From Rubrivivax sp. (lineage in GTDB: Bacteria > Pseudomonadota > Gammaproteobacteria > Burkholderiales > Burkholderiaceae_C), in the NCBI GenBank assembly GCA_046348035.1, contig JAXMEZ010000005.1, positions 13,615 through 77,614 on the forward strand: 64,000 bases of DNA, read 5' to 3'. Within the stretch, counting starts at the first letter, position 1; every line of letters begins with the position of its first letter. This document shows positions 340 through 31,571 of this stretch, one piece after another. The position numbers and the translations under genes were made by a program. The notes under the pieces are model-generated. The model was not told the DNA's origin. It was given only the letters and a program-made list of their open reading frames with translations, and did not search any database.

Positions 340-379
340 CGGATCGACGAATGTGAAACGACCGGCAACGGCAACGCGT

Positions 380-852
380 TCTTCACGGGACGTCGTTGGA
401 CGTTGCGGCATGCAGCGCGACTGCACGAGACGCCTGCGGGCCGCCACTTCGTCGGCGCGGCTGCGGGCGGACGAGCTCGAGCGCCGGCGCGGCCGTCCGC
501 CTGTAGTAGGCCCAGGCGCCGTCAAGGCTCTCGTGGCCGCTGCGCGGCGCACGAGATCGACGATCTTGTGCTTCAGGATCGCCGTGAGCCAGGTGCGCAG
601 CGTCGCGCGGCCGTCGAAGCGGGCGCGGCCGCTGACCACCGCTTCGAACACGTCGTGCACCAGGTCTTCGGCGAGGCTCGCATCGAGCAGCCGCCGGCGC
701 GCGAAACGCACCAGTGCACCGCGCTCGGCCACGAGCGCCGGCCAGCCGGGCATGGTGGGCGCGGTGGTCGCGGTGGCCGCCGTGGGCGTGGCGGCGGCGA
801 GCGTGACGGAGGTGACAGGGGCAGTGGCGGCGACGGCGGCAACAGGTTCCAT
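380..852 (-). pseudogene. ECF sigma-70 factor, region 2 intact, region 4 missing (not in ORF track)
   Basis: Manual translation from ATG 852: MEPVAAV...ERGALVRFARRRLLDASLAEDLVHDVFEAVVSGRARFDGRATLRTWLTAILKHKIVDLVRR, a typical ECF region 2. Similarity fades by about 440. The frame has no stop before the window edge, so the track omitted it. End coordinate approximate. Confidence 0.75.
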
Positions 853-1061
853 GGCGGCGGCGTTCCCCTGGGGGACCGGCGAACGGTGGCGATGGCTACA
901 CTGTTCCGGCCGCGCCTCGCGCCGCTCTCACCGAAGATCACAGCGAGATCACATCGCGCTGGCATCGCCGGCACGCATCGACAACGCATCCGTAAGAAGG
1001 TGGAGGCGGCGCGCGACCCATGCCTGCATGGCCCCGAACCCGGCGATCGCCGCCGAAGCAC

Positions 1062-1137
1062 CACACTCGGCGCTTGGCGCCGACGCTGCACACTCGGCGC
1101 TTGGCGCCGACGCTGCACACTCGGCGCTTGGCGCCGA
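1062..1137 (+). repeat. 27-bp tandem repeat x~2.8, each unit containing a perfect 7-bp inverted repeat
   Basis: Unit CACACTCGGCGCTTGGCGCCGACGCTG at 1062, 1089 and 1116 (partial). Core is TCGGCGC-TTG-GCGCCGA. Confidence 0.95.
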
Positions 1138-1144
1138 AGCGCCA

Positions 1145-1876
1145 ATGACCGCGCCCCGTATCCTCGTGGCCGAGGACCAGGCCGACATCCGCGACCTCAT
1201 CGTGCTCAACCTGCAAGGTGCGGGCTACGAGGTGCAGGCGGTGGCCGACGGCGCGGCGGCGCTGGAAAGCCAGGCCGAGCGCGCCAGCGACCTGCTGGTG
1301 CTCGATTTGATGATGCCGGCGCTCGACGGCCTGGAAGTGTGCAAGGCGCTGCGCGCGCGCGGCCGCGCGACGCCGATCCTGATGCTCACCGCCAAGGCCA
1401 CCGAACTGGACCGCGTGCTCGGCCTTGAACTCGGCGCCGACGACTACCTCACGAAGCCGTTTTCGATGGCCGAGCTGCTGGCGCGCGTGAAGGCGCTCTT
1501 GCGGCGCGCGTCGCTGCTGCGCGCGGCGCAGCAGCAGGGCGGCAGCGGCAGCGCCGCCGGTAGCGGCGCGGCGCCGGTGCGCAACGGCGAGCTGGAGATC
1601 CTGCCGGCGCGGCGCGAAGTGCGCGTCGGCGGCCGCAGCGTCGAGCTGACGGCGCTCGAATTCGACCTGCTGCTGCACTTCGCCAGCCACCCCGGGCGCG
1701 TGTTCTCGCGCGCGCAGCTTCTCGACGCGGTGTGGGGCTACTCGCACGAAGGCTACGAGCACACGGTGACGACGCACATCAACCGCGTGCGCGCCAAGAT
1801 CGAAGCCGACCCGATGCGGCCGCGCTTCGTGCTCACTGTGCGCGGTGCGGGCTACAAGATGCGCGACGCCCCATGA
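1145..1876 (+). CDS. OmpR/PhoB-family response regulator
   Basis: RILVAEDQ, DLLVLDLMMP, MLTAK, GADDYLTKPF, and winged-helix tail LTALEFDLL...TVRGAGYK. Start could be 1028 if the tandem repeat is translated. Confidence 0.95.
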   Translation: MTAPRILVAEDQADIRDLIVLNLQGAGYEVQAVADGAAALESQAERASDLLVLDLMMPALDGLEVCKALRARGRATPILMLTAKATELDRVLGLELGADDYLTKPFSMAELLARVKALLRRASLLRAAQQQGGSGSAAGSGAAPVRNGELEILPARREVRVGGRSVELTALEFDLLLHFASHPGRVFSRAQLLDAVWGYSHEGYEHTVTTHINRVRAKIEADPMRPRFVLTVRGAGYKMRDAP

Positions 1877-1933: not shown

Positions 1934-3550
1934 ATGACCGTCCGCCTGCGCCTGGCGCTCACCGTGCTGCTGACGGGGCTGGCCACGGCGCTCGGCGTGC
2001 TCGTGACCGTGGCGCTCGCCTTCGAGCGCTTCGAGCGCGAAGCGGCCTATGCGCGCGCCGACGCCTTCCTCGGCCGCGTCGTCGCCGAGCACGCCGACCT
2101 GCCGGCGCAGCAGAAGCGCGACCCGCAGGCGTTCATCGTGTTCCTGCGCAGCCTCGTGCTGTTCGAACCGGCGAGCCAGCTGTACCTGCTCGCTGCCGAC
2201 GGCACCGTGCTCGCCAGCACCGGCAGCAAGCCGCTGGCAAGCGACTTCCGGGTGGCGATCGCGCCGGTGCGGCAGGCGGCGGCGGCCGCCGCCGGCGCTG
2301 CGGCGCGTCGGCGGCAGCGCCGCCTACGTGATGGGCGACGACCCCGAGTACATGGAAGAAGACGCGGTCATCGCGGCGCGCGCGCTCGTGCTGCCGTCGA
2401 TCCACGCTGGCGCCGGCCCCGCGGGCTACCTCTACCTCGTGAGCCGCAAGCCGGGGCTGCCGGCCAGCCGCCTGGCGCGCCTCGCGGCCCAACTCGCCGG
2501 GCCGGCGCTGGCGCCGGTGCTCGCGGTGGTGCTGCTGGCCACGGCACTGGCGGCGTGGATCATCGCCGCGGTGACGCGGCCGCTGGCAGTGCTCAGCGCT
2601 GCGGTGGATGGCGCCGCGCGTGCTGGCTTCGACGAAACGGCACCGGCGGCGATGCCGGCGCTGGCGGCACTCCACGCCGGCCGCGTCCGCCGCCAGAGCC
2701 TCGCCGGCGACGACGAATTCAGCCGCCTGCACCGCGGCTTCCAGGCGCTCTTGGCGAAGCTGCATGCGCAGTGGGACCGCCTGCGCCGGCTCGACGCCTT
2801 CCGCCGCGAGAGCGTGAGCAACCTCTCGCACGACCTGCGCTCGCCGCTCACCGCCGCCGCTGCGAGCCTGGAGACGCTGCAGCAGCGCTGGCGCGAAGGC
2901 GCCGCGGCCGAAGACCTGCGCCTGCTGGACGTGGCGCTGCGCAACACGCACAACGCGGCACGCCTGGTGCGCTCGCTCGGCGACCTGGCGGTGCTCGACG
3001 AGGCGAGCTTCCGCCTGCGCCTGGCGCGGCTGGATCTCGCCGAGATGCTCTCCGACATCGCGATGCGCTTCGCCGAGCGCGCGGCGCGCCAGGGCGTGAC
3101 GCTCGCCTGTGACATCGAGGGCGAAGCCGAAGGGCAAGGCAACGGAAGCACGTCGCCGCTCGTGGCCGAGGTCGATGTCGAACTCGTCGAGCGCGCGCTC
3201 GCCAACCTCATCGACAACGCGCTCGCGCACACGCCCGCCGGCGGGCGCGTCGTGCTGGCGGCGCGCGCAGCCGAGGCGGTGCAGAAGCGGCCGGCAGCGT
3301 GCGGCTCAGCGTCAGCGACACCGGCGACGGCATCGCCGCCGCCGATCTCGAACATCTCTTCGACCGCCATTTCCGCGGCGGCGGCGCCGCTGAACGCGCG
3401 CGGGCGACGGCGCGCACCGACGGCGGCAAGGGCCTGGGCCTCGCGATCGTGCAGCGCATCGTCGAACTGCACGGCGGCCGCGTCGCCGTCACCAGCGAGC
3501 CCGGCCGCGGCACTTCGGTGATGCTCGAATTGCCGGTGCAGCCGGGCTGA
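1934..3550 (+). CDS. Membrane sensor histidine kinase (HAMP, HisKA, HATPase); two frameshifts near 2290 and 3295
   Basis: TM1 in ORF 1934. TM2, HAMP, H-box SNLSHDLRSPL and N-box LANLIDNAL in ORF 2049. G boxes VSDTGDGI, FDRHFRG and GKGLGLAIV in ORF 3299. Confidence 0.9.
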
Positions 3551-3780: not shown

Positions 3781-5568
3781 ATGACAGTCGATGCGGTCCT
3801 CGTGCTCCAGCGCAGCGACGTGGCGCGCATTGCGGCCGCGCCCGAGCGCCTGGCCGGCGCGCGGCTGGTGTTCGTCGACCCGGGCCTCCTGGACGACGCC
3901 GCGCAGCGCGGCCTGACGCAGCGCTTCGCCTACGAGTACCGGCGCCTGGACCTGGGGCCGGACATGCAGGCGCGCGCCGCCAGCGAAGCCATCGCCCGCG
4001 CCACGCTCGTCGATCTGCAACTCAGCGCCGAGCGCGAGCGGCTCTTCGGTGGCGGCGCCGCCGATCCCGGTGCGCCTGCCACGCCGTTCACCGGCTGGGA
4101 CGTGGGCCTCTTCTTCCTCGCGCTGCAGCGCGCCGCCGTGGCGCGCGCGCTGGCGCAGGCGATCGCCGCCAGCTTCAAGGAATCGAGCATCGGGCTGCTC
4201 AGGCCGAGCAACGCGCAGCAGATGTACTTCGATTCCTTCATCTCGGCCGACCTCGTCGGCCGGGATCCGCAGCGCTTCTCGATCGTCGACCGCTACGACG
4301 ATGCGCGCTGGCAGCGCCCCGACGCCTACGACCAGGTGCTCGACGCGCAGGCGATGGGCGCGCTCCTGGCCCGCGGCGTCATCTCGCTCGTGAGCCACGT
4401 GCCCACCTGCTTCTACGACCGCGCCTGGCTGGCCGACGAAGTGGCGCGCTCGCACGCCTTCACGCTCGACCTGCCGAGCCCCTTCTGGGACGTGCCGCTG
4501 CACCGCGGCGCGCCGCTGCTGGTGCCGCGCACGAATCTCGCCGCCGAGGCCGACGTTGCCGAATACGGCGCCCGCGCCCTGCGCATCTTCGACACGCTGC
4601 TCGGCGACCTGCTGCCGCAGCAGCGCGCGCGCGAGGAGCAGTTGAACGCGTGGGCGGCGCGCGCGCGCTGGCAGGCGCTGAACTACCTGCAGCTTCGCAA
4701 CGCCTTCGCACGCATGGCCCAGGTCACCGCGGTGCCGCAGTTCCTGCTCGCCGATCAGGACACCGGGCTCAACGGGCCGCTCTTCTCGACGGCAGCGCGC
4801 ATCGGCGCGGCGATCACCGTCGTGCCGCATTCGGGCCATGTGTCGATGCTGCTGCCGCACGGCCAGCGCGTGCAGGTGGTCGAGCGCGCCGGCTACGGCT
4901 GCGCGCCGCGCACGCTGCTCGGGCAGGCGCTGCCGGTGCGGCCGGTGCGCTTCAACCAGCAGGCGGCGCGGCGGCCGCTGCACACGGCGCCGCACGCGCC
5001 GAGGCGCGCGGCGACGCTGTGCCTGCTGCTGAACAGCTTCAACACCGAGGGCTTGAGCCACGTCGACGCACATGCGCTGGCCGAGTTCTACCGGCCGCTG
5101 GCAGCGTTGTGCGAACGGCACGGAGTCAAGCTCGTGCTGCGCCCGAAGCCCGGCGCGCCGGCCTTGGCTGTGCTGGCGGGGGCACTGGACGTGCCGCCGG
5201 CGCAACTCGCCGGCGCGGTGCAGCAGCCGCTGGCCGAGCTCGCGCAGGCGAGCGACCTCTGCATCGCCTGGGGCGAGCCGACGACCGGCATCGCCCCGTT
5301 TCTCGACGCCGGCTGCCTCGTGCTGCAAGTGATGCGAGAACGCTGGCCGGTGGACTACCTCGTGTGCATGCCGCTCGTTCGCGACGGCGTCGTGCCGACG
5401 CTGGCGCCGGCCGCGGCGCTGGAACTGGTGAAGCGCCAGCTCGAGCAGCCCGCGCTGCTGGCCGCCGACACGGCGCGCCAGAGCGCCGCTTTCGACGCTC
5501 GCGCCGCCGGCGCGCACGAGCACCTGTTCGACCACACCATCGAGCCGCTGCAGCGCGCCGCCGCCTGA
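3781..5568 (+). CDS. Uncharacterised 595-aa protein, probable GT-B-fold glycosyltransferase linked to the nonulosonate cluster
   Basis: Long clean ORF directly upstream of pseB. C-terminal half LVLRPKPG...ELAQASDLCIAWGEPTTGI...LDAGCLV resembles GT-B C-terminal Rossmann domains. Function is inferred. Confidence 0.5.
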   Translation: MTVDAVLVLQRSDVARIAAAPERLAGARLVFVDPGLLDDAAQRGLTQRFAYEYRRLDLGPDMQARAASEAIARATLVDLQLSAERERLFGGGAADPGAPATPFTGWDVGLFFLALQRAAVARALAQAIAASFKESSIGLLRPSNAQQMYFDSFISADLVGRDPQRFSIVDRYDDARWQRPDAYDQVLDAQAMGALLARGVISLVSHVPTCFYDRAWLADEVARSHAFTLDLPSPFWDVPLHRGAPLLVPRTNLAAEADVAEYGARALRIFDTLLGDLLPQQRAREEQLNAWAARARWQALNYLQLRNAFARMAQVTAVPQFLLADQDTGLNGPLFSTAARIGAAITVVPHSGHVSMLLPHGQRVQVVERAGYGCAPRTLLGQALPVRPVRFNQQAARRPLHTAPHAPRRAATLCLLLNSFNTEGLSHVDAHALAEFYRPLAALCERHGVKLVLRPKPGAPALAVLAGALDVPPAQLAGAVQQPLAELAQASDLCIAWGEPTTGIAPFLDAGCLVLQVMRERWPVDYLVCMPLVRDGVVPTLAPAAALELVKRQLEQPALLAADTARQSAAFDARAAGAHEHLFDHTIEPLQRAAA

Positions 5569-5647: not shown

Positions 5648-6664
5648 ATGCTCAACGACCAGTCCCTCCTCGTCACCGGCGGCACCGGCAGCTTCGGCCG
5701 CGCCTTCGTCCGCACCGTGCTCGAACGCTTCCCGCGCGTGAAGCGCCTCGTCATCTTCTCGCGCGACGAGTTGAAGCAGTTCGAGATGGCGCAGCAGTTT
5801 CCGAAGACGCAGTACCCGTTCCTGCGCTTCTTCATCGGCGACGTGCGCGACGCCGCGCGCCTGAAGCGGGCGATGGAAGGCATTGACATCGTCGTGCACG
5901 CCGCGGCGCTGAAGCAGGTGCCGGCAGCCGAATACAACCCGATGGAGGCGATCAAGACCAACGTGCTCGGGGCGCAGAACGTCATCGAGGCCTGCCTCGA
6001 TTCGGACGTGAAGCGCGTCGTCGCGCTGTCCACCGACAAGGCCGCCGCGCCGATCAACCTCTACGGCGCCACCAAGCTGTGCAGCGACAAGCTCTTCGTC
6101 GCCGCCAACAACATCCGCGGCAGCCGCGACCTGCGCTTCTCGGTCGTGCGCTACGGCAACGTCATGGGCAGCCGCGGCTCGGTGATCCCGTTCTTCCTCG
6201 GTCAGCGCGAGCAGGGCGTGCTGCCAATCACGCACCCGGACATGACGCGCTTCAACATCTCGCTGGACGACGGCGTGGCGATGGTGCTGTGGAGCATCGA
6301 GCACGCCTGGGGCGGCGAGATCCTCGTGCCCAAGATCCCGAGCTACCGCATCACTGACGTCGCCGACGCCGTGGCACCGGCGGCGCGCAAGCGCATCGTC
6401 GGCATCCGCCCGGGCGAGAAGCTGCACGAGGAGATGATCACCGCCAGCGACAGCCCCAACACGGTGGACCTCGGCCGCTACTTCGCCATCCTGCCCGGCG
6501 GCGCCGACTACGCGATCGACGACTACTGCGCCCGCATGGGCGGCACCCGCGTGCAGCCCGGCTTCAGCTACGACAGCGGCAGCAACAACGACTTCCTCTC
6601 GGTGCCGCAGCTGCGCGCGCTCATCGACAAGCACGTGGAGAACCCCCTTGTTGCCCATCACTGA
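5648..6664 (+). CDS. pseB: UDP-N-acetylglucosamine 4,6-dehydratase (inverting)
   Basis: TGGTGSFG, SRDELKQ, HAAALKQVPAAEYNP, LSTDKA..P.NLYGATKL, RYGNVMGSRGSV, GIRPGEKLHEEM. Confidence 0.95.
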   Translation: MLNDQSLLVTGGTGSFGRAFVRTVLERFPRVKRLVIFSRDELKQFEMAQQFPKTQYPFLRFFIGDVRDAARLKRAMEGIDIVVHAAALKQVPAAEYNPMEAIKTNVLGAQNVIEACLDSDVKRVVALSTDKAAAPINLYGATKLCSDKLFVAANNIRGSRDLRFSVVRYGNVMGSRGSVIPFFLGQREQGVLPITHPDMTRFNISLDDGVAMVLWSIEHAWGGEILVPKIPSYRITDVADAVAPAARKRIVGIRPGEKLHEEMITASDSPNTVDLGRYFAILPGGADYAIDDYCARMGGTRVQPGFSYDSGSNNDFLSVPQLRALIDKHVENPLVAHH

Positions 6665-7673
6665 ACGCACGCAGCCGCAGCCGCGGCCCGAACCGGTTGC
6701 CGCACAGCGCGGCCCCGTGGTCGTGCTCGGCCACACGGGCCTGCTCGGCCAGGCGGTCATGCGCGTGGCGGCTCAGCGGGGCCTGCGCACGCTCGGCATC
6801 TCCAGCCGCACCGTGCCGGGGCTCAACCTGGCGCGCCAGGCGGACCTGGCGCCGTTCCTCGACCCGCTGGCGCCGTCGCTGGTGATCAACGCGGCCGCGA
6901 TCACCGACTTCGCCGCCAACGAGGCCGACCCCTCGGCGGCGCACGAAGTGCACGTGCGCCTGCCCGGGCTGCTGGCCGACTGGGGCCGGCATCGCGGCGT
7001 GCCGTGGGTGCAGGTGTCCACCGACCACTACTGGAACGACATCGAGAACGAGCTGCACGACGAAGCGGCGCCGGTGAGCCCGCCCAACGTCTACGCGCGC
7101 AGCAAGCACGCCGGCGAGGAGCTGGCGCTGCGCGACCCGTGCTGCCTGGTGCTGCGCACCAACATCGTCGGCTTCCGCGGCCGCGCCGGCGCACCGACGT
7201 TCGCCGAGTGGGCCGTCAACGCACTCGCCGGCGGCCAGCCTTTCGACGCCTACACAAACGTGTGGGCCAGCAGCATCGAGGTGGGCCAGTTCGCCGAGGC
7301 GCTGTTCGACCTCGTGCAAGGCGGCGTGCGCGGCTTGCTGAACCTGGCCAGCCGCGACTCGCTGTCGAAGGCCGACTTCATCGCCGCGCTGGCACGCGCC
7401 GCCGGCTACGACCCGCAGCTGGCGCGCCGCACCGAGCGCCCGAGCCGCCAATGGCCGCGCCGCGCCAACGCGATGGGCCTGGACGTGACGCGCGCCGAGG
7501 CGCTGCTCGGCCGCGACCTGCCCACCGCCGACGAAGTGATCGAGGCGATCGTCGCCAACCCGGCGATGCCCAAGGTCACGCTGCGCTTCGACCTCGGCGC
7601 CAGCACCGTGCCGGCACCGCTGATGTCGCTGGCGCCGCTGGCCGACAGCGCCGCTTCGGACGGCGGCGAATGA
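6648..7673 (+). CDS. RmlD-like NAD(P)-dependent sugar-nucleotide 4-keto reductase (extended SDR)
   Basis: GHTGLLG, INAAA.T, VQVSTDH, P.NVYARSKHAGE (YxxxK), VLRT. Confidence 0.85.
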   Translation: MLPITERTQPQPRPEPVAAQRGPVVVLGHTGLLGQAVMRVAAQRGLRTLGISSRTVPGLNLARQADLAPFLDPLAPSLVINAAAITDFAANEADPSAAHEVHVRLPGLLADWGRHRGVPWVQVSTDHYWNDIENELHDEAAPVSPPNVYARSKHAGEELALRDPCCLVLRTNIVGFRGRAGAPTFAEWAVNALAGGQPFDAYTNVWASSIEVGQFAEALFDLVQGGVRGLLNLASRDSLSKADFIAALARAAGYDPQLARRTERPSRQWPRRANAMGLDVTRAEALLGRDLPTADEVIEAIVANPAMPKVTLRFDLGASTVPAPLMSLAPLADSAASDGGE

Positions 7674-7748
7674 CGAGGACCGAAGCGATGCCGCTCGCCC
7701 ACTCCGCTGTCTCCGCAAACCTCTGCGCAATCGCCGCAGCCCGAGCCC

Positions 7749-8879
7749 GTGCGCATCGGCCAGCGCCTGCTCGCGCTCGATGCGCCCACCTACTTCATCG
7801 CCGACATCGCCGCCAACCACGACGGTGACCTCGAGCGCGCGAAGGCGCTGATCTGGCTGGCGCGCGAGGCCGGTGCCGACTGCGCCAAGTTCCAGCACTT
7901 CAAGGCCGAGAAGATCGTCAGCGACCGCGGCTTCAAGGCGCTGGGCGCCCAGCTCGGCCACCAGGCGAAGTGGGACAAGCCGGTGTTCGACGTCTACCGC
8001 GCCTACGAACTCAACCGCGAGTGGAACGACGAACTCGCAGCCACCGCGCGCGCCGCCGGCATCCACTTCATGACCACGCCGTACGACGTGGAAGCGGTGG
8101 CGAGCGTCGACGCGCTCGTGAGCGCGTGGAAGATCGGCTCGGGCGACATCACCTGGGTCGAGTTCATCCGCCAGGTCGCCGGCACCGGCAAGCCGCTGCT
8201 GCTGGCCACCGGCGCCAGCCAGATGGCCGATGTCGAGCGCGCCGTGCGCGCGGTGCTCGCCGTCAACCGGCAGCTCGTGCTCATGCAGTGCAACACCAAC
8301 TACACCGGGTCGCTCGCGAACTTCCGCCACATCAACCTGAACGTGCTGAAGACCTACGCGGCGCGCTGGCCTTCGGTGCTGCTCGGCCTGTCGGACCATT
8401 CGCCCGGCCACGCCACGGTGCTGGGCGCGGTGGCGCTCGGCGCGCGCGCGGTGGAGAAGCACTTCACCGACGACAACGCGCGCACCGGCCCCGACCACGG
8501 CTTCGCGATGAACCCGGCCACGTGGCGCGAGATGGTCGAGCGCACGCGCGAGCTGGAAGCCGCGCTCGGCGACGGCATCAAGCGCGTCGAGGCCAACGAG
8601 GTGCAGTCGGCCGTGCTGCAGCAGCGCTGCCTGCGCGCGCGGCGCGATCTCGCCGGCGGCACCGTGCTCACTGCCGACGACCTGGAGCCGCTGCGCCCGG
8701 CGCCGGCCGGCGCGGCGCGGCCGTACGAGCTCTCGGCGCTCATCGGCCGCCGGCTGCGCCATGCGCGCCTGGCCGGCGATGCGCTCGCTTTCGACGACCT
8801 CGAGCCGGCGAGCGTGGACCCGCGCACCGCGGCCACGCTCGCGCGCAAGGCCGAGCCGAGCGCCGTCGTCGCGCACTGA
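7749..8879 (+). CDS. NeuB/PseI-family nonulosonic acid synthase with C-terminal SAF domain
   Basis: FIADIAANHDGD, GADCAKFQ, KIGSGDIT, LATGAS, QCNTNY, GLSDHS, EKHFT, GPDH, and a SAF tail. The true start may be ATG 7670 with an indel. Confidence 0.9.
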   Translation: MRIGQRLLALDAPTYFIADIAANHDGDLERAKALIWLAREAGADCAKFQHFKAEKIVSDRGFKALGAQLGHQAKWDKPVFDVYRAYELNREWNDELAATARAAGIHFMTTPYDVEAVASVDALVSAWKIGSGDITWVEFIRQVAGTGKPLLLATGASQMADVERAVRAVLAVNRQLVLMQCNTNYTGSLANFRHINLNVLKTYAARWPSVLLGLSDHSPGHATVLGAVALGARAVEKHFTDDNARTGPDHGFAMNPATWREMVERTRELEAALGDGIKRVEANEVQSAVLQQRCLRARRDLAGGTVLTADDLEPLRPAPAGAARPYELSALIGRRLRHARLAGDALAFDDLEPASVDPRTAATLARKAEPSAVVAH

Positions 8880-8911
8880 TCGACGCGGCCACGCGAGAAA
8901 GGACGCCAGCG

Positions 8912-9514
8912 ATGCTCTGCGGCAAGACCGTCGGCCTGCGCGCGATCGAATCGCACGACCTGCCGCAACTGCTGGCCTGGCGCAACGACCCGCGCCTGCG
9001 CCGCTACTTCCGCGAGGTCCGCGAGCTGAACCTGGCGCAGCAGCGGCAGTGGTTCGAAACGCGCGTCAACAACGACCCGGCGACGCGCATGTTCGCCATC
9101 GTCGAGCGCGGATGCAGTGGCGGCCACAACGCCGGCCGCCTGCTCGGCGCCTGCGGCCTGTGCTACATCGACTGGGTCAACCGCACGGCCGACTTCAGCC
9201 TCTACATCGGCGCCGACGACCTCTACATCGACGAGCGCTTCGCACCCGATGCCGCGGTGGCGATGATCGACTACGGCTTCGACGAGCTCGGCCTGCACCG
9301 GCTGTGGTCGGAGATCTACAGCTTCGATGCGCCGAAGCAGCGCTTGTTCGCCGCGCTCGGCTTCGCGCTCGACGGCCGCCACCGCCAGACGCACTGGGCC
9401 GAAGGCGCGTGGCACGACTCGCTGTACTACTCGCTGCTTGCCACCGACCGCCGGCCTGAATTGCCGGTAGCACCGGCGCCGCCGGCGACGGAAAGCAAGG
9501 CCGAAGGAAAGTGA
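8912..9514 (+). CDS. GNAT (RimJ/RimL/PseH-like) N-acetyltransferase
   Basis: MLCGKTVGLRAIESHDL, WRND, IDWVNRTADFSLYIG, YGFDELGLHRL, LGFALDG. Preceded by AGAAAGGA. Confidence 0.85.
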   Translation: MLCGKTVGLRAIESHDLPQLLAWRNDPRLRRYFREVRELNLAQQRQWFETRVNNDPATRMFAIVERGCSGGHNAGRLLGACGLCYIDWVNRTADFSLYIGADDLYIDERFAPDAAVAMIDYGFDELGLHRLWSEIYSFDAPKQRLFAALGFALDGRHRQTHWAEGAWHDSLYYSLLATDRRPELPVAPAPPATESKAEGK

Positions 9515-9522
9515 CCCCTCCG

Positions 9523-10203
9523 ATGAAGAACCTCGCCGTCATCCCCGCCCGCGGCGGCAGCAAGCGCATCCCGCGCAAGAACATCCGCGCCTTCGCCGGC
9601 TTGCCGATGATCGCCTACGCCATCGCCGCCGCGCGCGCGAGCGAACTCTTCGACGAGGTCGTCGTCAGCACCGACGACGACGAGATCGCCGCCGTCGCCG
9701 CCGCGCACGGCGCGACGGTGCCGTTCCGCCGCCCGGCCGAGCTGGCCGACGACCAGACGACGACGGTGCCGGTGATCGCGCACGCGGCGCAGTGGTTCGT
9801 CGAGCGCGGCCGCGCGCCGGCGGCGGTGTGCTGCATCTACCCCTGCGTGCCGCTCCTGCGCGCCGAAGACCTGCGCGGCGCGTACGAGATGTTCAGCGAA
9901 CGCGGCGCCGAGTACGTGTACCCGGTGGTGCAGTTCCACAGCTCGCCGTGGCGCGGCATGCGCCGGCCGGAGAACGGGCCGATGCAGTTCGTGCACCCCG
10001 AGTACGAGCTGACGCGAACGCAGGACCTGGAGAAGATGTACTTCGACGCCGGCCAGTTCTACTGGGGTAAGGCCTCGGCCTGGTGCGCGGGGCTGCGCAT
10101 GCACTCCAACGGCCACGGCTACGTGGTCGAGGGCCACCGCGTGGTGGACATCGACACGCCCGAGGACTGGAAGCGCGCCGAGCTGATCGCCCGCGCGCTG
10201 TAG
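9523..10203 (+). CDS. pseF: Pseudaminic acid cytidylyltransferase (CMP-nonulosonate synthetase)
   Basis: VIPARGGSKRIPRKNI, VSTDDDEIA, RTQDLE, DAGQFYWG, DIDTPEDW. Confidence 0.92.
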   Translation: MKNLAVIPARGGSKRIPRKNIRAFAGLPMIAYAIAAARASELFDEVVVSTDDDEIAAVAAAHGATVPFRRPAELADDQTTTVPVIAHAAQWFVERGRAPAAVCCIYPCVPLLRAEDLRGAYEMFSERGAEYVYPVVQFHSSPWRGMRRPENGPMQFVHPEYELTRTQDLEKMYFDAGQFYWGKASAWCAGLRMHSNGHGYVVEGHRVVDIDTPEDWKRAELIARAL

Positions 10204-10244
10204 CGGCGCGGCTCTGCTGCGCGCTTCTCTTCCGGCGCTGCTGC

Positions 10245-11506
10245 CTAACGCGCAGGACGCGCGGGACTTCCGGGCAGGCGCGCGAGCGGATTCGCGAGAG
10301 CGCTTGCGGCAGCAAGCCGCCGCGCCCGGTGAGCTGGCGCGTGATGGCGGCCTTCACCACGCTGCTGAACGGCGGCAGCCGCTCGGCCGCACCGAGCAAT
10401 GCGCGCCGCGCCAGCTTCGCGGGCCGTGCTCGTCGGTGAAGAGCTTGACGATCGCGTTCGTGCCGAGGTAGGTCGGCAGCGTCGTGCGCCGGTGTTCGTC
10501 GCCGTAGCGCGCGAGCACGGCCGCGTCGCCGATGTCGCGGCCGGCGGCGCGCGCAGCAGCGAGTTCGCGCGCCAGCACTTCCACGCCGTAGAGGCCGAAG
10601 TTGTAGCCGTGCGCGGTGACCGGGTGCATGCCCACGGCCGCGTCGCCGATGAGCGCGAAGCGCGGTGCGGTGAAGCGGTGCGCGTACACGCCCACCAGCG
10701 GGTAGTGGTGGCGCGGCCCGGCAGCGCCGCTGATGCGGCCGAGCGCGGCCGGCGCCTGCGCCTGCACGCGGGCGGCGAAGGCAGCGTCGTCCAGCGCCAG
10801 CCATTCGCTCGCGCGGTCGGAGGCCAGCGTCACCACGGCCGAGGACCGGCGGCCGTTCAGCGGCAGCAGCGCCAGCGTGTTGCCGTAGCGGAAGCATTCC
10901 AGGCGATGCCTTCGGCGTCGTTGTCGTGCGCGACGCGGCCGACGACGACGCTGCGCGCGAAGTCGTGCATCGAAGCGCCGATGCCCGCGAGCCGCCGCAT
11001 CTGCGAGAAGCGGCTGTCGGCGGCGACCATGAGCTTCGCCGCGTGCGTGCTGCCGTCGGCGAGCGTCAGGCGCGCCGCGTCGGCGCCGAGCGCAACGCCG
11101 TGACGCGCGCATCGGACAGCACCTCGACGCCGCGGCGGCTCTCGGCGGCGCGCAGCGCGGCGTCGCGGATCAAATGGTTGGGCACCAGCCAGCCGAGCGC
11201 TTCGAGCCCGCTGCCTTGCGACGAGAAGCGCAGCGCCGCCGGCGAGTCGCCGTCGAGCACGCGCGCTTCGCGCAGCGGCGCGATCTCGTCGGCCGCGATG
11301 CGCTTCCACAAGCCGAGCTTCTCCATCACCGCGCGTGCGCGGTGCGTCAGCGCGATCTCGCGCCCGTCCTCGGCCGGGTTGTCGAGCGCGGTGCGGGCGG
11401 CCTGCTCGAGCACGCGCACGGAAAGGCCGGCATCGGCCAGCGCGCAGGCCAGCGCCAGGCCCGCGGGGCCGGCACCGACGACGAGGACATCGAAGGGTTC
11501 GCTCAT
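10245..11506 (-). CDS. ubiM: FAD-dependent ubiquinone-pathway hydroxylase UbiM; frameshifted (about 3-4 indels)
   Basis: VVGAGPAG, DGREIALTH, VAADSRFS, LIGDAAVGMHPVTAHGYNFGL, TNAIVKLFTD, spread across successive frames. End approximate. Confidence 0.8.
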
Positions 11507-11567
11507 GATCCGGCGAATCATGGCCGGCGGTCCTGACAGCGGCCTTGACCGAAGTCATCGGGCCACT

Positions 11568-11684
11568 CCTCTCCCGCACGCGAAGCCGCAGGCTTCGCTC
11601 GAGTGCGGCAGAGGGCAGGTGAGGGCTCGCTCGTCTGCGGAACATCCGCTCTCGCCCCAACCCTCTGCCGCGCCGCGGAAAGGG
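11568..11684. repeat. Degenerate CCCTCTCCC/GGGAGAGGG-type intergenic palindromic repeat
   Basis: CCTCTCCCGCAC...GTGCGGCAGAGGGCAGGTGAGGG...CTCTCGCCCCAACCCTCTGCCGC forms nested hairpins. Confidence 0.6.
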
Positions 11685-11694
11685 TGCGAAGGCG

Positions 11695-12363
11695 TCAGGC
11701 CGGCACGACGCGGAACAGGTACTGGAACACCTCGGCGTCGGCGGCGGCCTGGTCGGCGTCGCTGCCGGCGGCGCGCGCGATGGCGCGGATGCCGTGCATC
11801 AGCTCGGCCGGCGGCGTGGCGGCAACGCGCCGCGCGACGCCGGTGTCGACGCGCCAACCGGCATCGCGCCACATCTCGAGCAGCGTCGTGCGCGTGAACC
11901 AGCGCAGGTGCGTGCGGTCCAGGAGGCCGCTGTCTTCGTAGCGGAAGAGCCCCGTGGCCAGCCGCATCTGCACGCTCCAGTGCTGGCCGTTGGGGATGCA
12001 GGCGACGAGGCAGCCCTCGGGCGCGATGCGCTCGCGGATGCAGCGCAGCAGTCGCCACGGGTCGCGCAGGTGCTCCAGGCAGTCGCCGAAGACCCAGCAG
12101 TCGCTCGGGAACAGCACCTCGAACTTCTCGTCCTCGAACTTCTCGATGTCGCCGGCGAGCGCCGTGTCGCAATGCGTTGCCGCGGCGGCGGCGTAGTCGG
12201 GGTCGATGTCGATGCCGGTGTAGCGCGTGCCGGGGTTCGCGCTTCGGTATGCGGCGGCGAGCGCGCCTTGCATGCAGCCGACCTCGACGACGTGGCGCGC
12301 GCCCTCGGGCATCAGCGCCAGCAGGTCGCGGTTGACGACGTTGTGCGCCGGCGTCTGCTTCAT
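11695..12363 (-). CDS. Class I SAM-dependent methyltransferase (surface-glycan-associated type)
   Basis: VVEVGCMQG, TGIDID, FGDCLEHLRDPW, CIPN, GLLDRTHLRWFT. Its start overlaps the TolC stop. Confidence 0.88.
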   Translation of the reverse strand: MKQTPAHNVVNRDLLALMPEGARHVVEVGCMQGALAAAYRSANPGTRYTGIDIDPDYAAAAATHCDTALAGDIEKFEDEKFEVLFPSDCWVFGDCLEHLRDPWRLLRCIRERIAPEGCLVACIPNGQHWSVQMRLATGLFRYEDSGLLDRTHLRWFTRTTLLEMWRDAGWRVDTGVARRVAATPPAELMHGIRAIARAAGSDADQAAADAEVFQYLFRVVPA

Positions 12364-13760
12364 CAACGCAGCCATTCGCTCACTCCCCGGCCGAGCGAAA
12401 TCAGGTTCGCGTTCAGCTCCTGCCCGTCGGCCAGCGCGTTGACGACGCTCACGCGCAGGTTGAAATGGTCGGCCTCGGCGGCCATCACGTCGAAGAGGCT
12501 GCGCCGGCCGAGCTGCTGCCATTGCTGCAGCGTGGCGTTGCGCACCTGCTGCGAGTCGCGCAGCACGGCTTCGGTGCGGCGCAGGCGGTCGAAGCTCGCC
12601 AGCGCCTGCTCGTGCACTTCGGCGACGCGGAAGCGCTTGGCCTCGATGGTGTCGGCGCGCTGCATCTCGGCAGCGCGGGCGCGCTTGCGCGCCGCGTCGG
12701 TGGCCGGCGGCACACCGGGGCTCGTGAGCGGGATGTTGACGTTGATGCCGATGGCGTAGCTGCTGTTGCGCACCGAGCCGCGCGTGCCGCCGCGGCCCCA
12801 CGACTGCGTGCCGCTGACGTTCCAGCCCACCTGCGCTCTCGTGCCCGCGGCCACCGCGTCGACGTAGTGGTGCATCGCCGCCGCCTGCGCGGTGAGCGCG
12901 GCCACTTCGCTGCTGCGCTCGACGTCGGCCACCAGCTGCGGCAGCGGTTCGACATCGAGCAGCAGCGAAGGCAAGCCTTCGCCGCTGGGCAGCGTGTCGC
13001 CCACCAGCCGCTTCAGCCGCCACTCGGTCTGCTTCAACTGCGACTGCGCACCGGCGAGCGAGATCTCCGCCTGCTGCAGCGACTTCTGCGCCTGCGACAG
13101 TTCGCTGGCGCGGCCGCGGTCGGCGCGCACGATCGTCTGCAGCGCATCGACGAGGCAGGCCATCTTGCGCACATACTGGCTGTAGACGACGCCTTGCTGC
13201 TGGTAGCGGCTGCGCTCGAACGCCAGCGATACGGTGGTGAGCGCGATCTGCTCCTGCACGTTGAGCTGGCCGTGCCGCGCCGATTCGGCCATCTGCGTGC
13301 GCCAGTCGACCAGGCGGTCGATGCGGCCGCCGTCGTAGAGGATCTGGCCGACGTTGACCGAGCCGCGCAACTGCACGGCCGAGGTTTCGCTGCCGGCCAG
13401 CGACTGCGAGCCGCCGGGGCCGACGCCGCCGCCGACACTCGCCTGGACGGCCTTGGCGGCGCGCGTCTCGCGGATGTCGTCTTCGGCCGCGTCGGCGAGC
13501 AACTGCGCCGCGCCGACCTGGTGGCTGCGGGCGATGGCATCGCGAACGAGCGACTGGAGCTGGCCGCGTGCGAGCGTGGCGGCGCTCGGCACGGCGGCCG
13601 CGCTGGAAGCGGCGGCAGCGGCTGCGGGGGCGGCGTCCTCGTCGATGCAATTGGCTGAGGCGCTGGCCGCGGCGCACGCTGCGACTACGGCGGCAGCAAG
13701 GCGCGCGAACGTGCGCGGCGAACGAAGCGAGGGAAGCGAAAGCAAAGCGGAGCGCGACAT
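12363..13760 (-). CDS. TolC-family outer-membrane channel (T1SS LapE/AggA-like)
   Basis: Signal peptide, QILYDGG, helical heptads, GRRSLFDVMAAE motif. Confidence 0.88.
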   Translation of the reverse strand: MSRSALLSLPSLRSPRTFARLAAAVVAACAAASASANCIDEDAAPAAAAAASSAAAVPSAATLARGQLQSLVRDAIARSHQVGAAQLLADAAEDDIRETRAAKAVQASVGGGVGPGGSQSLAGSETSAVQLRGSVNVGQILYDGGRIDRLVDWRTQMAESARHGQLNVQEQIALTTVSLAFERSRYQQQGVVYSQYVRKMACLVDALQTIVRADRGRASELSQAQKSLQQAEISLAGAQSQLKQTEWRLKRLVGDTLPSGEGLPSLLLDVEPLPQLVADVERSSEVAALTAQAAAMHHYVDAVAAGTRAQVGWNVSGTQSWGRGGTRGSVRNSSYAIGINVNIPLTSPGVPPATDAARKRARAAEMQRADTIEAKRFRVAEVHEQALASFDRLRRTEAVLRDSQQVRNATLQQWQQLGRRSLFDVMAAEADHFNLRVSVVNALADGQELNANLISLGRGVSEWLR

Positions 13761-28299: not shown

Positions 28300-31200
28300 T
28301 CACGCGCCACGCAGCACGCTGAACTCGCGGAACAGGCGCGCCGGCAGCGGAACGGCGAGTCGCCACACGATACTCATCGGCCGCTCGCCTTCAGCCGATT
28401 CGAGCGTCAGTGGTCCGCAGGCGCGATAGGCATCGCCCTTCCTTGCTCTGACAAAGAGCTGGAAAGTCCATCCGTTGGCCGGGCTTTCGAGATAGCGCCT
28501 GCCGCGCTTGGTGTGTGGGGCGGTGCTGTTCGGTGTTTGCCAGTGGAACTGCTCCGGACTGATGGCAAAGTCCTTGTACGAAACGCGCTCGTGAAACCCT
28601 TCGCTCTTGTCCAGAGTGACGAAGAACAGTTCCCGGCGTTGGTCCAACTGCGAAAGCACGCCGCCATCGAACGGCAGCCGCTGTTGCGCGGTCAGCCAAC
28701 CGACGGCCGTCAGCACTTCGCGCACGCCGTACGCGGCGTGCAGGCACAGCGGCGTGGCCTCGAGTCCGGGCATCGCTGTCGAGACAAGATCCGAGCGCGC
28801 CTCCAGCAGCGGCCAAAGCTCATTCAGTTCGTCGCGGATCGCCGGATGGGCGCCGAGGCGACCGAAAAACGCGATGGGATCGCCCAGTCGCTCGCGGCCG
28901 GCGTCGACTTGGTAGGCGAGCATCTGCGCCAGCACGACCTGCTGCGGATCGACAGGCGCCGCGGTCGCCTCGCCGCGGGCCGCCTTGGCCAGCATGCTCA
29001 GGCGTCGAGGGTCATCGACATGCAGCAGGCTCGCCAGCCGGCGGCTGAAGTACTGCTCCTCGGGACCCGGCTCCGCGACGATGAGCCCGGCGCTTCGGCG
29101 CAGCGTCGTCCAGCCGCTCAACTGCTTGCCGGTACTGGCGCGGTAGACGTCTTCGAGTTCAAGGGCCTGGTGATCAAGGAACTCGCGCAGCGGCGGCGCC
29201 TGGACCGTTCCCCTTAGCGCCATGTAGGCCAGCAGCTCGGCTGTCAGGCGCGGCCAGCTGTTGACCGTCAGCGTGCGCAGCGAGGCCAGCACCTGCTGCC
29301 GCGTCTTCGGTTGCAGCTCGATATGGCAACCGGGCGGCAGGCGACCGAACCCTTGTTCGCATTGTTCGACGAGTTCGCGCCGCGAGAGACCGGTCAGCGT
29401 GGACAGCAGGCGATCGAAGCGGTAGTCGGTTCGATGCTGGCCGACGAAATCGAGGACGAGGCACGATTCCTTCTTCGGCGGCGCCAGGCGCAGCCCGCGT
29501 CCGATCTGCTGCTGGAAGAGCACCGGGCTTTGCGTCGGCCGCAGCAGCAGCAGCGTGTCGACCATCGGCAGGTCGATCCCTTCGTTGTAGAGGTCCACCG
29601 TCACCAGCGCGCACAGCTTGCCGGCCATCAGGAGCTTGGGCGCGTCATCCCGCTCGTCCCTGGGCGTGTCGCCGAAGACGCAGCGGGCGGGCAGCCCCGC
29701 CGCGTTCAGCGTCGCTGCCATGAAGCGGGCATGTCGGACAGTCACGCAGAACACCAGGGCCTTGCATGCGCGCGGGTTGGCGGCCAGTCGCCGCCATTCG
29801 TCGATGACGAGCTTGGCGCGGACGTGGTTGTCGGAAACGAGGACGTCGAGTGCCGCAACTTCGCCCGGCATGTGCCAAGGGACGTCACGGAAGTCCGTCT
29901 GATCGTCGCACGCGAAGTACTCGAACGGCGCGAGCAGCTGGAGGTCGAGGGCGTGCCACAGCCGCAACTCGACCGCGGGCCGACCGTCGGGCCGCGCGTT
30001 GAAGTGCTGAAGAATCGGCCTGCCGTCGGTTCGCTCAGGTGTCGCCGTCAGCCCGAGCAGCACCTTCGGTTCGACGGCGGTGATGAACGCCTCGAAGCGG
30101 TCAGCGGCCAGGCGGTGGCACTCATCGACAACAACGACGTTCCAGTGCGCCGCGCCGAGCTGGGCGACCAAGCCTCGCGCGTGCACGCCGTCGATGGTGG
30201 CGAAGAGGTGGTCGTGGCTGGCGGGTTCCTCGCCGCCGGCCAGCAGGGTCCCGAAAGTTCGGTCGCGCAGCACTTCGCGATAGGTGCGTTGCGCCTGCTC
30301 CAGGATCTCGCGCCGGTGGGCCACGAAGAGCAGCCTCGGGTAGCCCCCTTGCTCGCGGTGCAGCCGCCGGTAGTCCAGGGCGGCCAGCACGGTCTTGCCG
30401 GTCCCGGTGGCGGCAACGACGAGGTTGCGCCACCGGCCGTGCGCCCTTTCGCTGGCGAGCTGGTCGAGCATCTCCTGCTGGTAGCTCTTGGGCTGCAGAT
30501 CGAAGAACGTCACAAGCGCCGCGCTGGCGCCATCCGGCCGCTCCTGCTGCAGCGCTTCTCGCAGCTTCGTGCGATGAGCTTCGCTGCCCGCATCGAAATG
30601 CTGGAACTCGGGGTCGGCCCACAGCGTTTCGAAATGCGCAACGGCATGCTCGAAGAGCGCCGTTTGCGAGCGCTGGGCGATCTTGACCGTCCATTCCAGG
30701 CCGCCGGTGAGCGCGGCGCCCGTCAGATTGGCGCTGCCGACGTAAGCGCTGCCGAAGCCCGTCGCGCGGCGAAAGATCCAGGCTTTCGCATGCAGGCGGG
30801 TGCGCCGGCCGTCGAGAGAGACGCGCACTTCGCAACCCGGCAGCCGTGCCAGCCGTTCCAGCGCTTCGGCCTCGGTGTTGGCCATGTAGGTCGTGGTCAG
30901 CACCCGCAGCCTCGTCCGCGTCTGGCCTTGCGCGTCAAGCGCAGACAGGCGGCTCAATTCGCCTTCGAGTTTGCGCAAGCCGGAGACGGTGATGAAGCTG
31001 ATGAGAACGTCGACGTGGTCGGCCGAGTCGAGCTCGCGCCGCAGTTCCTGCAAGAGCGATGGCGTGCCGCGGCCGGCTGTGAAGAGCCAAGGTGCCGACA
31101 GGCCGAGTTCGGGCGCAGGCCGGCCCGCGGTGTCTCCGCCCAGCGCGACGAGGCGGCGCGGCGGTGCGGCGATGAGGTCGATGACTTCGGCGGCGCCACG

Positions 31201-31452
31201 AGCGTCAGCCCCCAAGCCCGCCAGACGCTCGCGCAATGCGACGAGCAGTCCGTTGACCAGAGCCAGTTCGTGCTGTTGCCGCTGGCCGTCGGGAAGGTCG
31301 TCCAGCGCGTCGCCGAGTTGCCGCGCCAGCGCCTCGGCCAGATAGGCCGTCGCTTCGGCGGCTAACGGCTGCAAGTCCGCGGCTTCGCTACCGAGACGTG
31401 ACGAAATGCCTTCGGTAACGAGCAGGTCGTACAAGCCCTTGGGCAAACTCAT
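28300..31452 (-). CDS. PLD nuclease-SF2 helicase-DUF3427 protein (SauUSI-like type IV restriction candidate)
   Basis: PLD motif LHAKAWIF...GSANLT, Walker A AATGTGKT, DECH, GLTATPERTDG, NEGIDLP, QQIGRGLR, and C-terminal FFVTLDK...YKDFAISPEQFHWQT (DUF3427-like). Confidence 0.88.
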   Translation of the reverse strand: MSLPKGLYDLLVTEGISSRLGSEAADLQPLAAEATAYLAEALARQLGDALDDLPDGQRQQHELALVNGLLVALRERLAGLGADARGAAEVIDLIAAPPRRLVALGGDTAGRPAPELGLSAPWLFTAGRGTPSLLQELRRELDSADHVDVLISFITVSGLRKLEGELSRLSALDAQGQTRTRLRVLTTTYMANTEAEALERLARLPGCEVRVSLDGRRTRLHAKAWIFRRATGFGSAYVGSANLTGAALTGGLEWTVKIAQRSQTALFEHAVAHFETLWADPEFQHFDAGSEAHRTKLREALQQERPDGASAALVTFFDLQPKSYQQEMLDQLASERAHGRWRNLVVAATGTGKTVLAALDYRRLHREQGGYPRLLFVAHRREILEQAQRTYREVLRDRTFGTLLAGGEEPASHDHLFATIDGVHARGLVAQLGAAHWNVVVVDECHRLAADRFEAFITAVEPKVLLGLTATPERTDGRPILQHFNARPDGRPAVELRLWHALDLQLLAPFEYFACDDQTDFRDVPWHMPGEVAALDVLVSDNHVRAKLVIDEWRRLAANPRACKALVFCVTVRHARFMAATLNAAGLPARCVFGDTPRDERDDAPKLLMAGKLCALVTVDLYNEGIDLPMVDTLLLLRPTQSPVLFQQQIGRGLRLAPPKKESCLVLDFVGQHRTDYRFDRLLSTLTGLSRRELVEQCEQGFGRLPPGCHIELQPKTRQQVLASLRTLTVNSWPRLTAELLAYMALRGTVQAPPLREFLDHQALELEDVYRASTGKQLSGWTTLRRSAGLIVAEPGPEEQYFSRRLASLLHVDDPRRLSMLAKAARGEATAAPVDPQQVVLAQMLAYQVDAGRERLGDPIAFFGRLGAHPAIRDELNELWPLLEARSDLVSTAMPGLEATPLCLHAAYGVREVLTAVGWLTAQQRLPFDGGVLSQLDQRRELFFVTLDKSEGFHERVSYKDFAISPEQFHWQTPNSTAPHTKRGRRYLESPANGWTFQLFVRARKGDAYRACGPLTLESAEGERPMSIVWRLAVPLPARLFREFSVLRGA

Positions 31453-31571
31453 CGCGGGCGCAGGATAACGGCGAACAGCGGCACGGCAAGTCGCACGTTC
31501 TGCAGCCGCTACCGGCTGGAGAAGCATCGCGGGCGCGGTTGCAGCGGCTCGCCGAGCGACCGACGACGCCC

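Follow-up and report, generated by a model that had tools for sequence, protein, structure and literature searches.

Nonulosonic acids cap flagella, capsules, lipopolysaccharides and S-layers, and they influence what phages, lectins and immune systems recognise. Three routes to these sugars are established, those to neuraminic (Neu), legionaminic (Leg) and pseudaminic (Pse) acid. The pathway to pseudaminic acid activated with cytidine monophosphate (CMP) comprises PseB, PseC, PseH, PseG, PseI and PseF in Campylobacter jejuni and Helicobacter pylori, and the legionaminic pathway consists of LegB, LegC, LegH, LegG/NeuC, LegI and LegF. Fusaminic acid (5-acetimidoylamino-3,5,9-trideoxy-L-glycero-L-gluco-non-2-ulosonic acid), from the O-antigen of Fusobacterium nucleatum 25586, is known by structure only; a literature search found neither a route for fusaminic acid or any other 3,5,9-trideoxy nonulosonate nor a description of the gene cassette reported here. 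This cassette of five genes lies in a stretch of 64,000 nucleotides (the window) on contig JAXMEZ010000005.1 of a metagenome-assembled genome (MAG) of Rubrivivax sp., and it joins two enzymes of the Pse pathway, PseB and PseF, to a reductase, a synthase and an acetyltransferase-like protein of other kinds.

The five genes are located on the plus strand (Table 1) and encode, in this order, PseB, a reductase resembling RmlD, a NeuB-family synthase, a protein with the fold of the GCN5-related N-acetyltransferases (GNAT) and PseF. Judged by family profiles, the cassette is a variant of the PseB-initiated nonulosonate pathway that departs from the canonical one at PseC, PseG, PseH and PseI, with only PseB and PseF falling inside their curated families. 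The PseB gene is distinct from FnlA, whose model gives only 252 bits (cut-off 730), and in an NCBIfam profile search no model reached its cut-off for the reductase, the synthase or the GNAT. Like the Pse pathway, the cassette would start from the N-acetylglucosamine ester of uridine diphosphate (UDP-GlcNAc) and end in a CMP-sugar, uses a NeuB-family synthase, carries a GNAT with a PseH-like fold and is often found, in other lineages, in the context of flagellin glycosylation. Unlike the Pse pathway, it contains neither PseC nor PseG and has the RmlD-like reductase in the position of PseC; its synthase reads KIGSGD where PseI reads KIASFE and belongs to a separate clade, its GNAT lacks the general-acid Tyr of PseH, and its predicted product bears OH rather than NHAc at C7.

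On balance, we favour the view that the five genes form one module for a CMP-activated nonulosonate with a single nitrogen, made through PseB, C4 reduction, UDP release, condensation with phosphoenolpyruvate (PEP) and CMP activation. Equivalog-level family membership predicts that PseB converts UDP-GlcNAc to UDP-2-acetamido-2,6-dideoxy-beta-L-arabino-hexos-4-ulose. The RmlD-like enzyme would then reduce C4 with NAD(P)H, giving a UDP-6-deoxy-L-HexNAc of altro or ido configuration, from which UDP would be removed; the local candidates for this step are the atypical GNAT and a protein with a GT-B-like domain encoded upstream of PseB (Table 1). The synthase would condense the free 6-deoxy-HexNAc with PEP to 5-acetamido-7-hydroxy-3,5,9-trideoxy-non-2-ulosonic acid, and PseF, as its family membership predicts, would convert this to the CMP-sugar. 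Finally, the GT-B protein probably transfers the sugar to an acceptor, under the control of the adjacent two-component system.

The synthase differs from those of the known routes. It is a member of the NeuB superfamily, with a TIM-barrel domain followed by a C-terminal SAF domain and with SpsE, NeuB and PseI as solved relatives, and it scores below both equivalog cut-offs (256 bits against 400 for NeuB, TIGR03569; 205 against 340 for PseI, TIGR03586). We placed it in a tree with 128 other synthases, 74 of them from loci that carry the reductase, 24 PseI, 21 NeuB/LegI and nine intermediates; the reference synthases were drawn from 250 genomes of the class, and the PseI and NeuB/LegI sequences score above their cut-offs. 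The window synthase and 72 reductase-locus synthases form one clade of 73, with a support of 100 in the Shimodaira-Hasegawa-like approximate likelihood ratio test (SH-aLRT) and a stem of 1.27 substitutions per site. All 24 PseI, all 21 NeuB/LegI and all nine intermediates fall outside this clade, and the two reductase-locus sequences that do so are second paralogues (in loci L042 and L063). A first-pass annotation, made from the sequence alone, had suggested a NeuB phylogeny as a check, and the clade of reductase-linked synthases that it predicted is indeed recovered. Membership in NeuB/LegI is thus contradicted both by the score and by a fully supported branch. The window synthase shares 28-37% identity with the reference PseI and NeuB/LegI proteins and 55-94% with reductase-linked synthases of other phyla. 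Asp replaces Glu in IADIAANHDGD and in KIGSGD throughout the clade, and H50, Y112, A153 and T186 are further invariant residues. The change in KIGSGD matches E134D, noted in archaeal and eukaryal synthases by Vieira et al. (PMC8208679). Some other columns of the clade agree with PseI. As the tree and these residues indicate, the synthase is a third kind, neither a drifted PseI nor a drifted NeuB.

The reductase carries the motifs of RmlD-like enzymes, with GHTGLLGQ as the Rossmann GxxGxxG motif, the catalytic Thr in STDH and the Tyr and Lys of YxxxK in YARSK; these motifs are conserved in 15 of 17 aligned homologues. In two homologues from Rubrivivax MAGs (P0038 and P0042), Leu and Trp replace the catalytic Tyr and Lys (NMLARSW), and these may be inactive copies. 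The family PF04321 covers residues 24-302, and the closest solved relatives are the RmlD structures 2ggs and 1kbz. The score against the RmlD equivalog TIGR01214 (101 bits) is below the cut-off of 224, which places the protein outside RmlD itself, and a look-up in the ESM Atlas returned generic RmlD-like clusters only. RmlD reduces deoxythymidine diphosphate (dTDP)-6-deoxy-L-lyxo-4-hexulose. This beta-L 4-keto-6-deoxy sugar nucleotide resembles the product of PseB in general shape, and the likeness makes C4 reduction the chemically natural assignment: we infer that the reductase would act on the C4 keto group of the PseB product. A similar logic is found in WbvB/WbvR, where a PseB/FnlA-like dehydratase and an RmlD-like reductase give UDP-L-RhaNAc. 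In common with that pair and with RmlD, the cassette combines a 4,6-dehydratase with an extended short-chain dehydrogenase/reductase (SDR) of the RmlD fold, which here would act at C4 of the beta-L-configured 4-keto-6-deoxy sugar nucleotide that the dehydratase provides. Its reductase differs from both in a low score against the RmlD model, in an STDHY motif of its own and in being coupled to a nonulosonate synthase rather than to a hexose glycosyltransferase pathway.

The pairing of this reductase with the synthase is widespread. A pattern scan with one genome per species gave 80 reductase loci (76 bacterial and four archaeal) in 10 phyla, with isolates that include Paenibacillus, Desulfosporosinus, Euryhalocaulis and a Neisseriaceae bacterium. 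The synthase lies immediately 3' of the reductase in 77 of the 80 loci, one of the exceptions being cut off by a contig end, and the two genes often overlap. The GNAT is immediately 3' of the synthase in 59 of the 72 loci that have room for it, and a PseB-like dehydratase is present in 71 of the 80. Homologues of the reductase were also found in Rubrivivax and Burkholderiales MAGs, on contigs that keep the order GT-B protein, PseB, reductase, synthase, GNAT and PseF; a homologue with 46% identity lies in an exopolysaccharide locus with the same gene set in shuffled order. The arrangement is far beyond what chance would give, as the order recurs in close relatives and the reductase-synthase pair in nearly all loci. 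A DegT-type aminotransferase occurs within 10 kb in only 19 of the 80 loci, and several of these are WbpE-like, from a WbpB/E/D-like add-on. Further companions are a KdsB-like or PseF-like cytidylyltransferase, a WbuX amidotransferase and the 'pseudaminic acid biosynthesis-associated methylase' TIGR03587 (274 bits). The cassette adjoins FliD, flagellins and Maf/PseD in Firmicutes and Alphaproteobacteria, where, by gene content, it belongs to flagellin glycosylation islands.

Several loci add genes to this core. Sister Rubrivivax loci (L008, positions 6726-13416; L025-L035; L055) extend the cassette with a WbuX amidotransferase (315 bits), an amidase, a Gfo/Idh/MocA oxidoreductase, a DegT aminotransferase and a second GNAT, which looks like an add-on for making an acetimidoyl group and installing an extra acetamido group. 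A protein resembling DUF4910, DUF2172 and M28 with a winged-helix domain stands beside the cassette in seven loci (among them L077, L089, L058 and L078). The reductase-synthase pair of a Magnetospirillum sp. MAG (L064) is accompanied by PseB, an aldo-keto reductase and Maf; unassigned C10 CMP-ulosonic acids have been reported from M. gryphiswaldense in a 2026 preprint (10.64898/2026.04.20.719630).

The GNAT is conserved but unusual. Members of its family share 54-96% identity from Rubrivivax to methanogens. PseH is its best NCBIfam match (TIGR03585), at 44.7 bits against a cut-off of 93. An AlphaFold2 model of high confidence (predicted local distance difference test, pLDDT, 88.8) superimposes about equally well on SpeG (template modelling score, TM, 0.75) and on H. 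pylori PseH (4ri1; TM 0.74, root-mean-square deviation 2.0). Assignment of a function from the fold was therefore set aside, SpeG and PseH being tied. We compared the protein with the PseH active-site residues given in PMC4363471. In all 23 aligned members, Phe or Leu stands at the position of the general acid (Tyr in SpeG, Tyr138 in PseH), and the beta4-alpha3 loop, which binds the pyrophosphate of coenzyme A (CoA), reads Y-I-D-x-x-x-A instead of Q/R-x-x-G-x-G/A. Residues that correspond to PseH Glu126 and Asn131 are retained (Glu134 and Asp139). The changes at the general acid and in the loop, together with the score below the PseH cut-off, indicate that the GNAT is not an orthodox PseH. Loss of activity does not follow, and some GNATs function without the general-acid Tyr.

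The first-pass annotation had pointed out that the window holds neither pseC nor pseG, and we found no match to the PseC or PseG families anywhere on its contig. The MAG that contains the window is only 61% complete, so we also searched relatives and isolates, namely five close relatives with a syntenic cassette (genomes of 5.2-7.3 Mb) and five isolates that carry it. Above the curated cut-offs, neither PseC nor PseG was detected in any of the five close relatives, and four of the five isolates lack both. In the incomplete genome of the window itself TIGR03590 (PseG) had no match at all, and the best match to the PseC model (230 bits; cut-off 423.5) is LegC, which scores 532 bits with TIGR04181. 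The absence of PseC and PseG thus extends beyond the window to the relatives and to most isolates, the exception being Paenibacillus psychroresistens. This isolate has a complete canonical cluster of PseB, PseC, PseG, a formyltransferase and PseI (L158, 1.153-1.158 Mb), about 1 Mb away from the cassette; this genome thus houses both pathways independently, with a different synthase for each. The formyltransferase of that cluster occupies the place where PseH would be, which predicts Pse5Ac7Fo in this strain.

These surveys bear on an alternative in which the product is a diamino sugar of the pseudaminic type, with an aminotransferase acting in trans, the GNAT serving as PseH and the reductase confined to a side role, such as the synthesis of UDP-6-deoxy-L-HexNAc as a second sugar. 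DegT-family aminotransferases are present in every genome tested, LegC and NeuC occur in the genome of the window, PseB and PseF are Pse equivalogs, and the GNAT has the PseH/SpeG fold and matches PseH best, all of which could be accommodated by such a scheme. We nevertheless consider it unlikely: nine of the 10 cassette genomes lack PseC above the cut-off and likewise PseG, two isolates have neither PseG nor NeuC, and the synthase is not PseI. Moreover, a side role fits poorly with a reductase that stands beside the synthase in almost every locus, the GNAT lacks both the Tyr138 equivalent and the Gly-rich CoA loop, and P. psychroresistens has retained its full canonical Pse cluster in addition to the cassette. 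The proposal of the first-pass annotation, a 4-keto reductase in place of PseC leading to a one-nitrogen nonulosonate with a 7-OH, gains from the catalytic Thr, Tyr and Lys, from the pairing with the synthase clade and from the absence of PseC and PseG, and it stays an argument from gene content.

Several proteins were considered for the release of UDP. A NeuC above the cut-off is encoded in four of the five close relatives, within legionaminic-type clusters, and in none of the five isolates; the Euryhalocaulis and Neisseriaceae isolates have neither PseG nor NeuC. A shared NeuC was therefore rejected as a general solution. A PseG-like gene (a weak match to PF04101) is present in five loci and abuts the reductase in two of them (L053 and L063), which fits a UDP-sugar as the product of the reductase. 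Four of the five loci with this gene have no GNAT, giving a weak hint that GNAT and PseG-like gene alternate, although 10 other GNAT-less loci lack both and the loci are not independent. UDP might also be released by a new kind of enzyme, for which the best candidate is the GNAT, turned from a PseH-like acetyltransferase into a UDP-sugar hydrolase or an obligatory partner of the synthase. This suggestion arises from its high conservation, its loss of the Tyr and the CoA loop and the lack of an amine to acetylate in the pathway, with the apparent alternation as a weak further hint, and we regard it as a long shot.

Alternatively, reduction might follow condensation, with the RmlD-like enzyme acting on a 7-keto nonulosonate, either free or bound to CMP. 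This order of events would suit the adjacent and often overlapping reductase and synthase genes and the lack of an obvious hydrolase acting on a reduced UDP-sugar. However, RmlD-family enzymes act on nucleotide-hexoses, UDP would still have to be released, and the PseG-like gene abutting the reductase in the two loci named above speaks for a UDP-sugar product, leaving this order very unlikely.

The genome of the window also holds a separate legionaminic-type cluster (contig C74, about 64700-73200; L156), which encodes LegB, LegC (532 bits), NeuC (409 bits), its own NeuB, a NeuA-like protein, WbuX (387 bits) and WbuZ. Contig C20 (L157) is a cleaner duplicate of part of this cluster, with 96.9% identity and 38 gaps in 3.5 kb; the gaps point to many frameshifting indels in C74 and to a duplicated stretch in the MAG. 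The cassette resembles the legionaminic route in leading through a NeuB-family enzyme to a 9-deoxy nonulosonate and in having a synthase with the KIGSG Gly that Neu and Leg enzymes also possess, but the retaining dehydratase, the aminotransferase and the hydrolysing 2-epimerase of that route are all absent from it. The first-pass annotation held that pseC and pseG elsewhere, combined with Pse5Ac7Ac as the sole sugar detected, would refute its proposal. An aminotransferase and a UDP-sugar hydrolase are indeed present, yet they are LegC and NeuC and lie in this separate cluster.

With NeuC in the genome, the cassette could in principle serve two unrelated functions: PseB and the reductase would supply a polysaccharide with a UDP-6-deoxy-L-HexNAc related to L-QuiNAc or L-RhaNAc, in line with the WbvB/WbvR logic of dehydratase plus RmlD-like reductase, and the synthase and PseF would use a precursor from the legionaminic-type cluster. 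That reading is highly improbable, given that reductase and synthase are paired across 10 phyla, that there are cassette isolates with neither NeuC nor PseG and that the legionaminic-type cluster has a NeuB and NeuA of its own.

If the cassette makes a one-nitrogen nonulosonate, as we favour, the product could be a '7-hydroxy Pse' or fusaminic acid, which is the C4 epimer of the former. The only difference in configuration between pseudaminic acid (L-glycero-L-manno) and fusaminic acid (L-glycero-L-gluco) lies at C4, and both derive from an L-altro hexose. Since the same 6-deoxy-L-AltNAc precursor would serve both, the product could be fusaminic acid itself, and the earlier expectation of a stereoisomer probably different from fusaminic acid finds support in neither direction. 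The predicted product shares with fusaminic acid the single nitrogen, the 7-OH and the 9-deoxy position, and the WbuX amidotransferase of the sister loci would give the 5-acetimidoyl form. The O-antigen of F. nucleatum 25586 is described, in the account of Vinogradov 2017 as cited in PMC7371886, as containing 6-deoxy-L-AltNAc, the predicted intermediate of the cassette, together with a 5-acetimidoylamino-3,5,9-trideoxy nonulosonate. The PseF of Acinetobacter baumannii is specific for Pse and tolerant at position 7 (PMC11040635). Both published facts are consistent with the proposed route. No Fusobacterium names appeared among the best 120 of 511 matches to a low-GC (Selenomonas) member of the reductase family; few of the matches are named, so this negative is uninformative.

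Four points weigh against the one-nitrogen route. First, a GNAT of the PseH/SpeG fold is conserved beside the synthase in 59 of the 72 loci; sugar-pathway GNATs of this fold N-acetylate 4-amino sugars, so its conservation would imply an amine that the proposed scheme does not make. Second, no UDP-sugar hydrolase is recognisable within the module. Third, the genome of the window is incomplete and holds LegC and NeuC, for which an action in trans is conceivable. Fourth, the synthase has Gly in place of a Phe of PseI that Bloch et al. (PMC7371886) relate to the configuration at C2 and that is taken to suit altro; this makes the configuration of the substrate uncertain.

The G+C content of the window is about 71%, and spurious frames abound in raw lists of open reading frames (ORFs) at such values, so that genes were called by codon-position G+C. 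The five genes and the overlapping or tight junctions described in the first-pass annotation are borne out by the profile matches (Table 1) and by the junction lengths. Taking TTG as the start of the reductase, its gene overlaps PseB by 17 nt; gaps of 75 nt and 32 nt separate the reductase from the synthase and the synthase from the GNAT, and the GNAT and PseF genes overlap by 4 nt. An ORF at 8761-9459 was rejected as the GNAT gene: it is in the wrong frame, has no family match and is disfavoured by codon-position G+C relative to the frame listed. All five genes are intact, with zero indels across the cassette according to an independent Illumina-derived contig set (run X1).

Table 1. Genes of the cassette and its upstream neighbours, with positions in the window.
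Feature	Position	Strand	Basis
OmpR-type response regulator	353-1876	+	PF00072 and PF00486 at ORF residues 270-503
Sensor histidine kinase, partner of the response regulator	2049-3521	+	HisKA match, histidine-kinase families
595-amino-acid protein, GT-B-like domain at residues ~198-590	3781-5568	+	predicted fold only
PseB, inverting UDP-GlcNAc 4,6-dehydratase	5648-6664	+	TIGR03589 511 bits (cut-off 408)
RmlD-like extended SDR, proposed NAD(P)H-dependent C4 ketoreductase on the PseB product	6648-7673	+	PF04321 99 bits
NeuB-family nonulosonate synthase, distinct reductase-linked clade	7749-8879	+	PF03102 232 bits; SAF domain PF08666 28.6 bits
GNAT-fold protein, 200 amino acids, ATG start	8912-9514	+	PF13302 78 bits
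PseF-type CMP-nonulosonate synthetase (cytidylyltransferase)	9511-10203	+	TIGR03584 277 bits (cut-off 206)

Upstream of the cassette, the response regulator and the histidine kinase are syntenic with it in relatives (the order is repeated in loci L006 and L007). The receiver and DNA-binding domains of the regulator cover only the second part of its ORF, and its translation probably begins downstream of the listed start. Homologues of the 595-amino-acid protein lie upstream of PseB in 15 loci, always directly 5' of PseB in the Rubrivivax-like group. Neither Pfam nor NCBIfam has a match to this protein, and by BLASTP it resembles neither the 583-amino-acid protein of a distant locus (L009) nor Maf/PseD. 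We modelled it with AlphaFold2 from an alignment of 13 orthologues (pLDDT 72, predicted TM score 0.70, a moderate confidence). Foldseek matched the model with probability 1.0 to VldE, GtfA, OtsA, OGT homologues and HMW1C, and VIA matched residues 198-590 to Asp1, SenB, MurG, BshA and UDP-GlcNAc 2-epimerases with Z scores of 10-11.4; the 2-epimerases, including 6vlc, score about 10, level with many transferases. The model thus indicates a fold of the GT-B type with two Rossmann domains. This fold is found in glycosyltransferases and also in PseG and NeuC. It cannot discriminate between the two: the protein may transfer the activated sugar, or it may be the enzyme missing from the module, a UDP-sugar hydrolase resembling PseG or NeuC.

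A UbiM-like hydroxylase, a TolC-like protein and a membrane transporter follow the cassette on the opposite strand, and the remaining genes of the window are housekeeping genes; no flagellar, pilus or O-antigen genes were found in the window. The UbiM-like ubiquinone hydroxylase (10354-11554, minus strand) falls into two ORFs that overlap (10354-11169 and 11066-11554). Relative to an Illumina-derived contig from run X1, the window shows six indels of 1-2 nt at 10233-10419, and the split is probably an assembly indel error, not a pseudogene. Farther downstream, a protein of 1138 amino acids (28300-31716, minus strand) combines a phospholipase D (PLD)-like nuclease, a ResIII/DEAD helicase and DUF3427, and resembles defence-type nuclease-helicases.

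The stretch is represented in the environment, with 0.6-0.8 of its sampled words present in activated-sludge, wastewater, sludge and biofilm metagenomes from at least seven studies. Short metatranscriptome contigs from two studies map to all five cassette genes at 95-100% identity. This is a weak hint of transcription, as DNA can contaminate metatranscriptome libraries. For the gene of the 595-amino-acid protein, cover by RNA contigs is limited to a few short pieces, and missing cover proves nothing.

With its own synthase clade and a distribution over at least 10 phyla and archaea, the cassette is a concrete and cloneable candidate for a route to one-nitrogen 3,5,9-trideoxy nonulosonates. Its carriers include culturable Paenibacillus, Desulfosporosinus and Euryhalocaulis as well as abundant activated-sludge bacteria. 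At least one undiscovered enzyme activity is suggested by the gap at UDP release and by the atypical GNAT. If the proposed pathway is correct, many genes that now carry the name 'dTDP-4-dehydrorhamnose reductase' or 'N-acetylneuraminate synthase' would have to be renamed, and the cassette would supply enzymes for CMP-activated 7-hydroxy analogues. It would also explain nonulosonate signals near 275 Da, which may have been mis-assigned in mass surveys.

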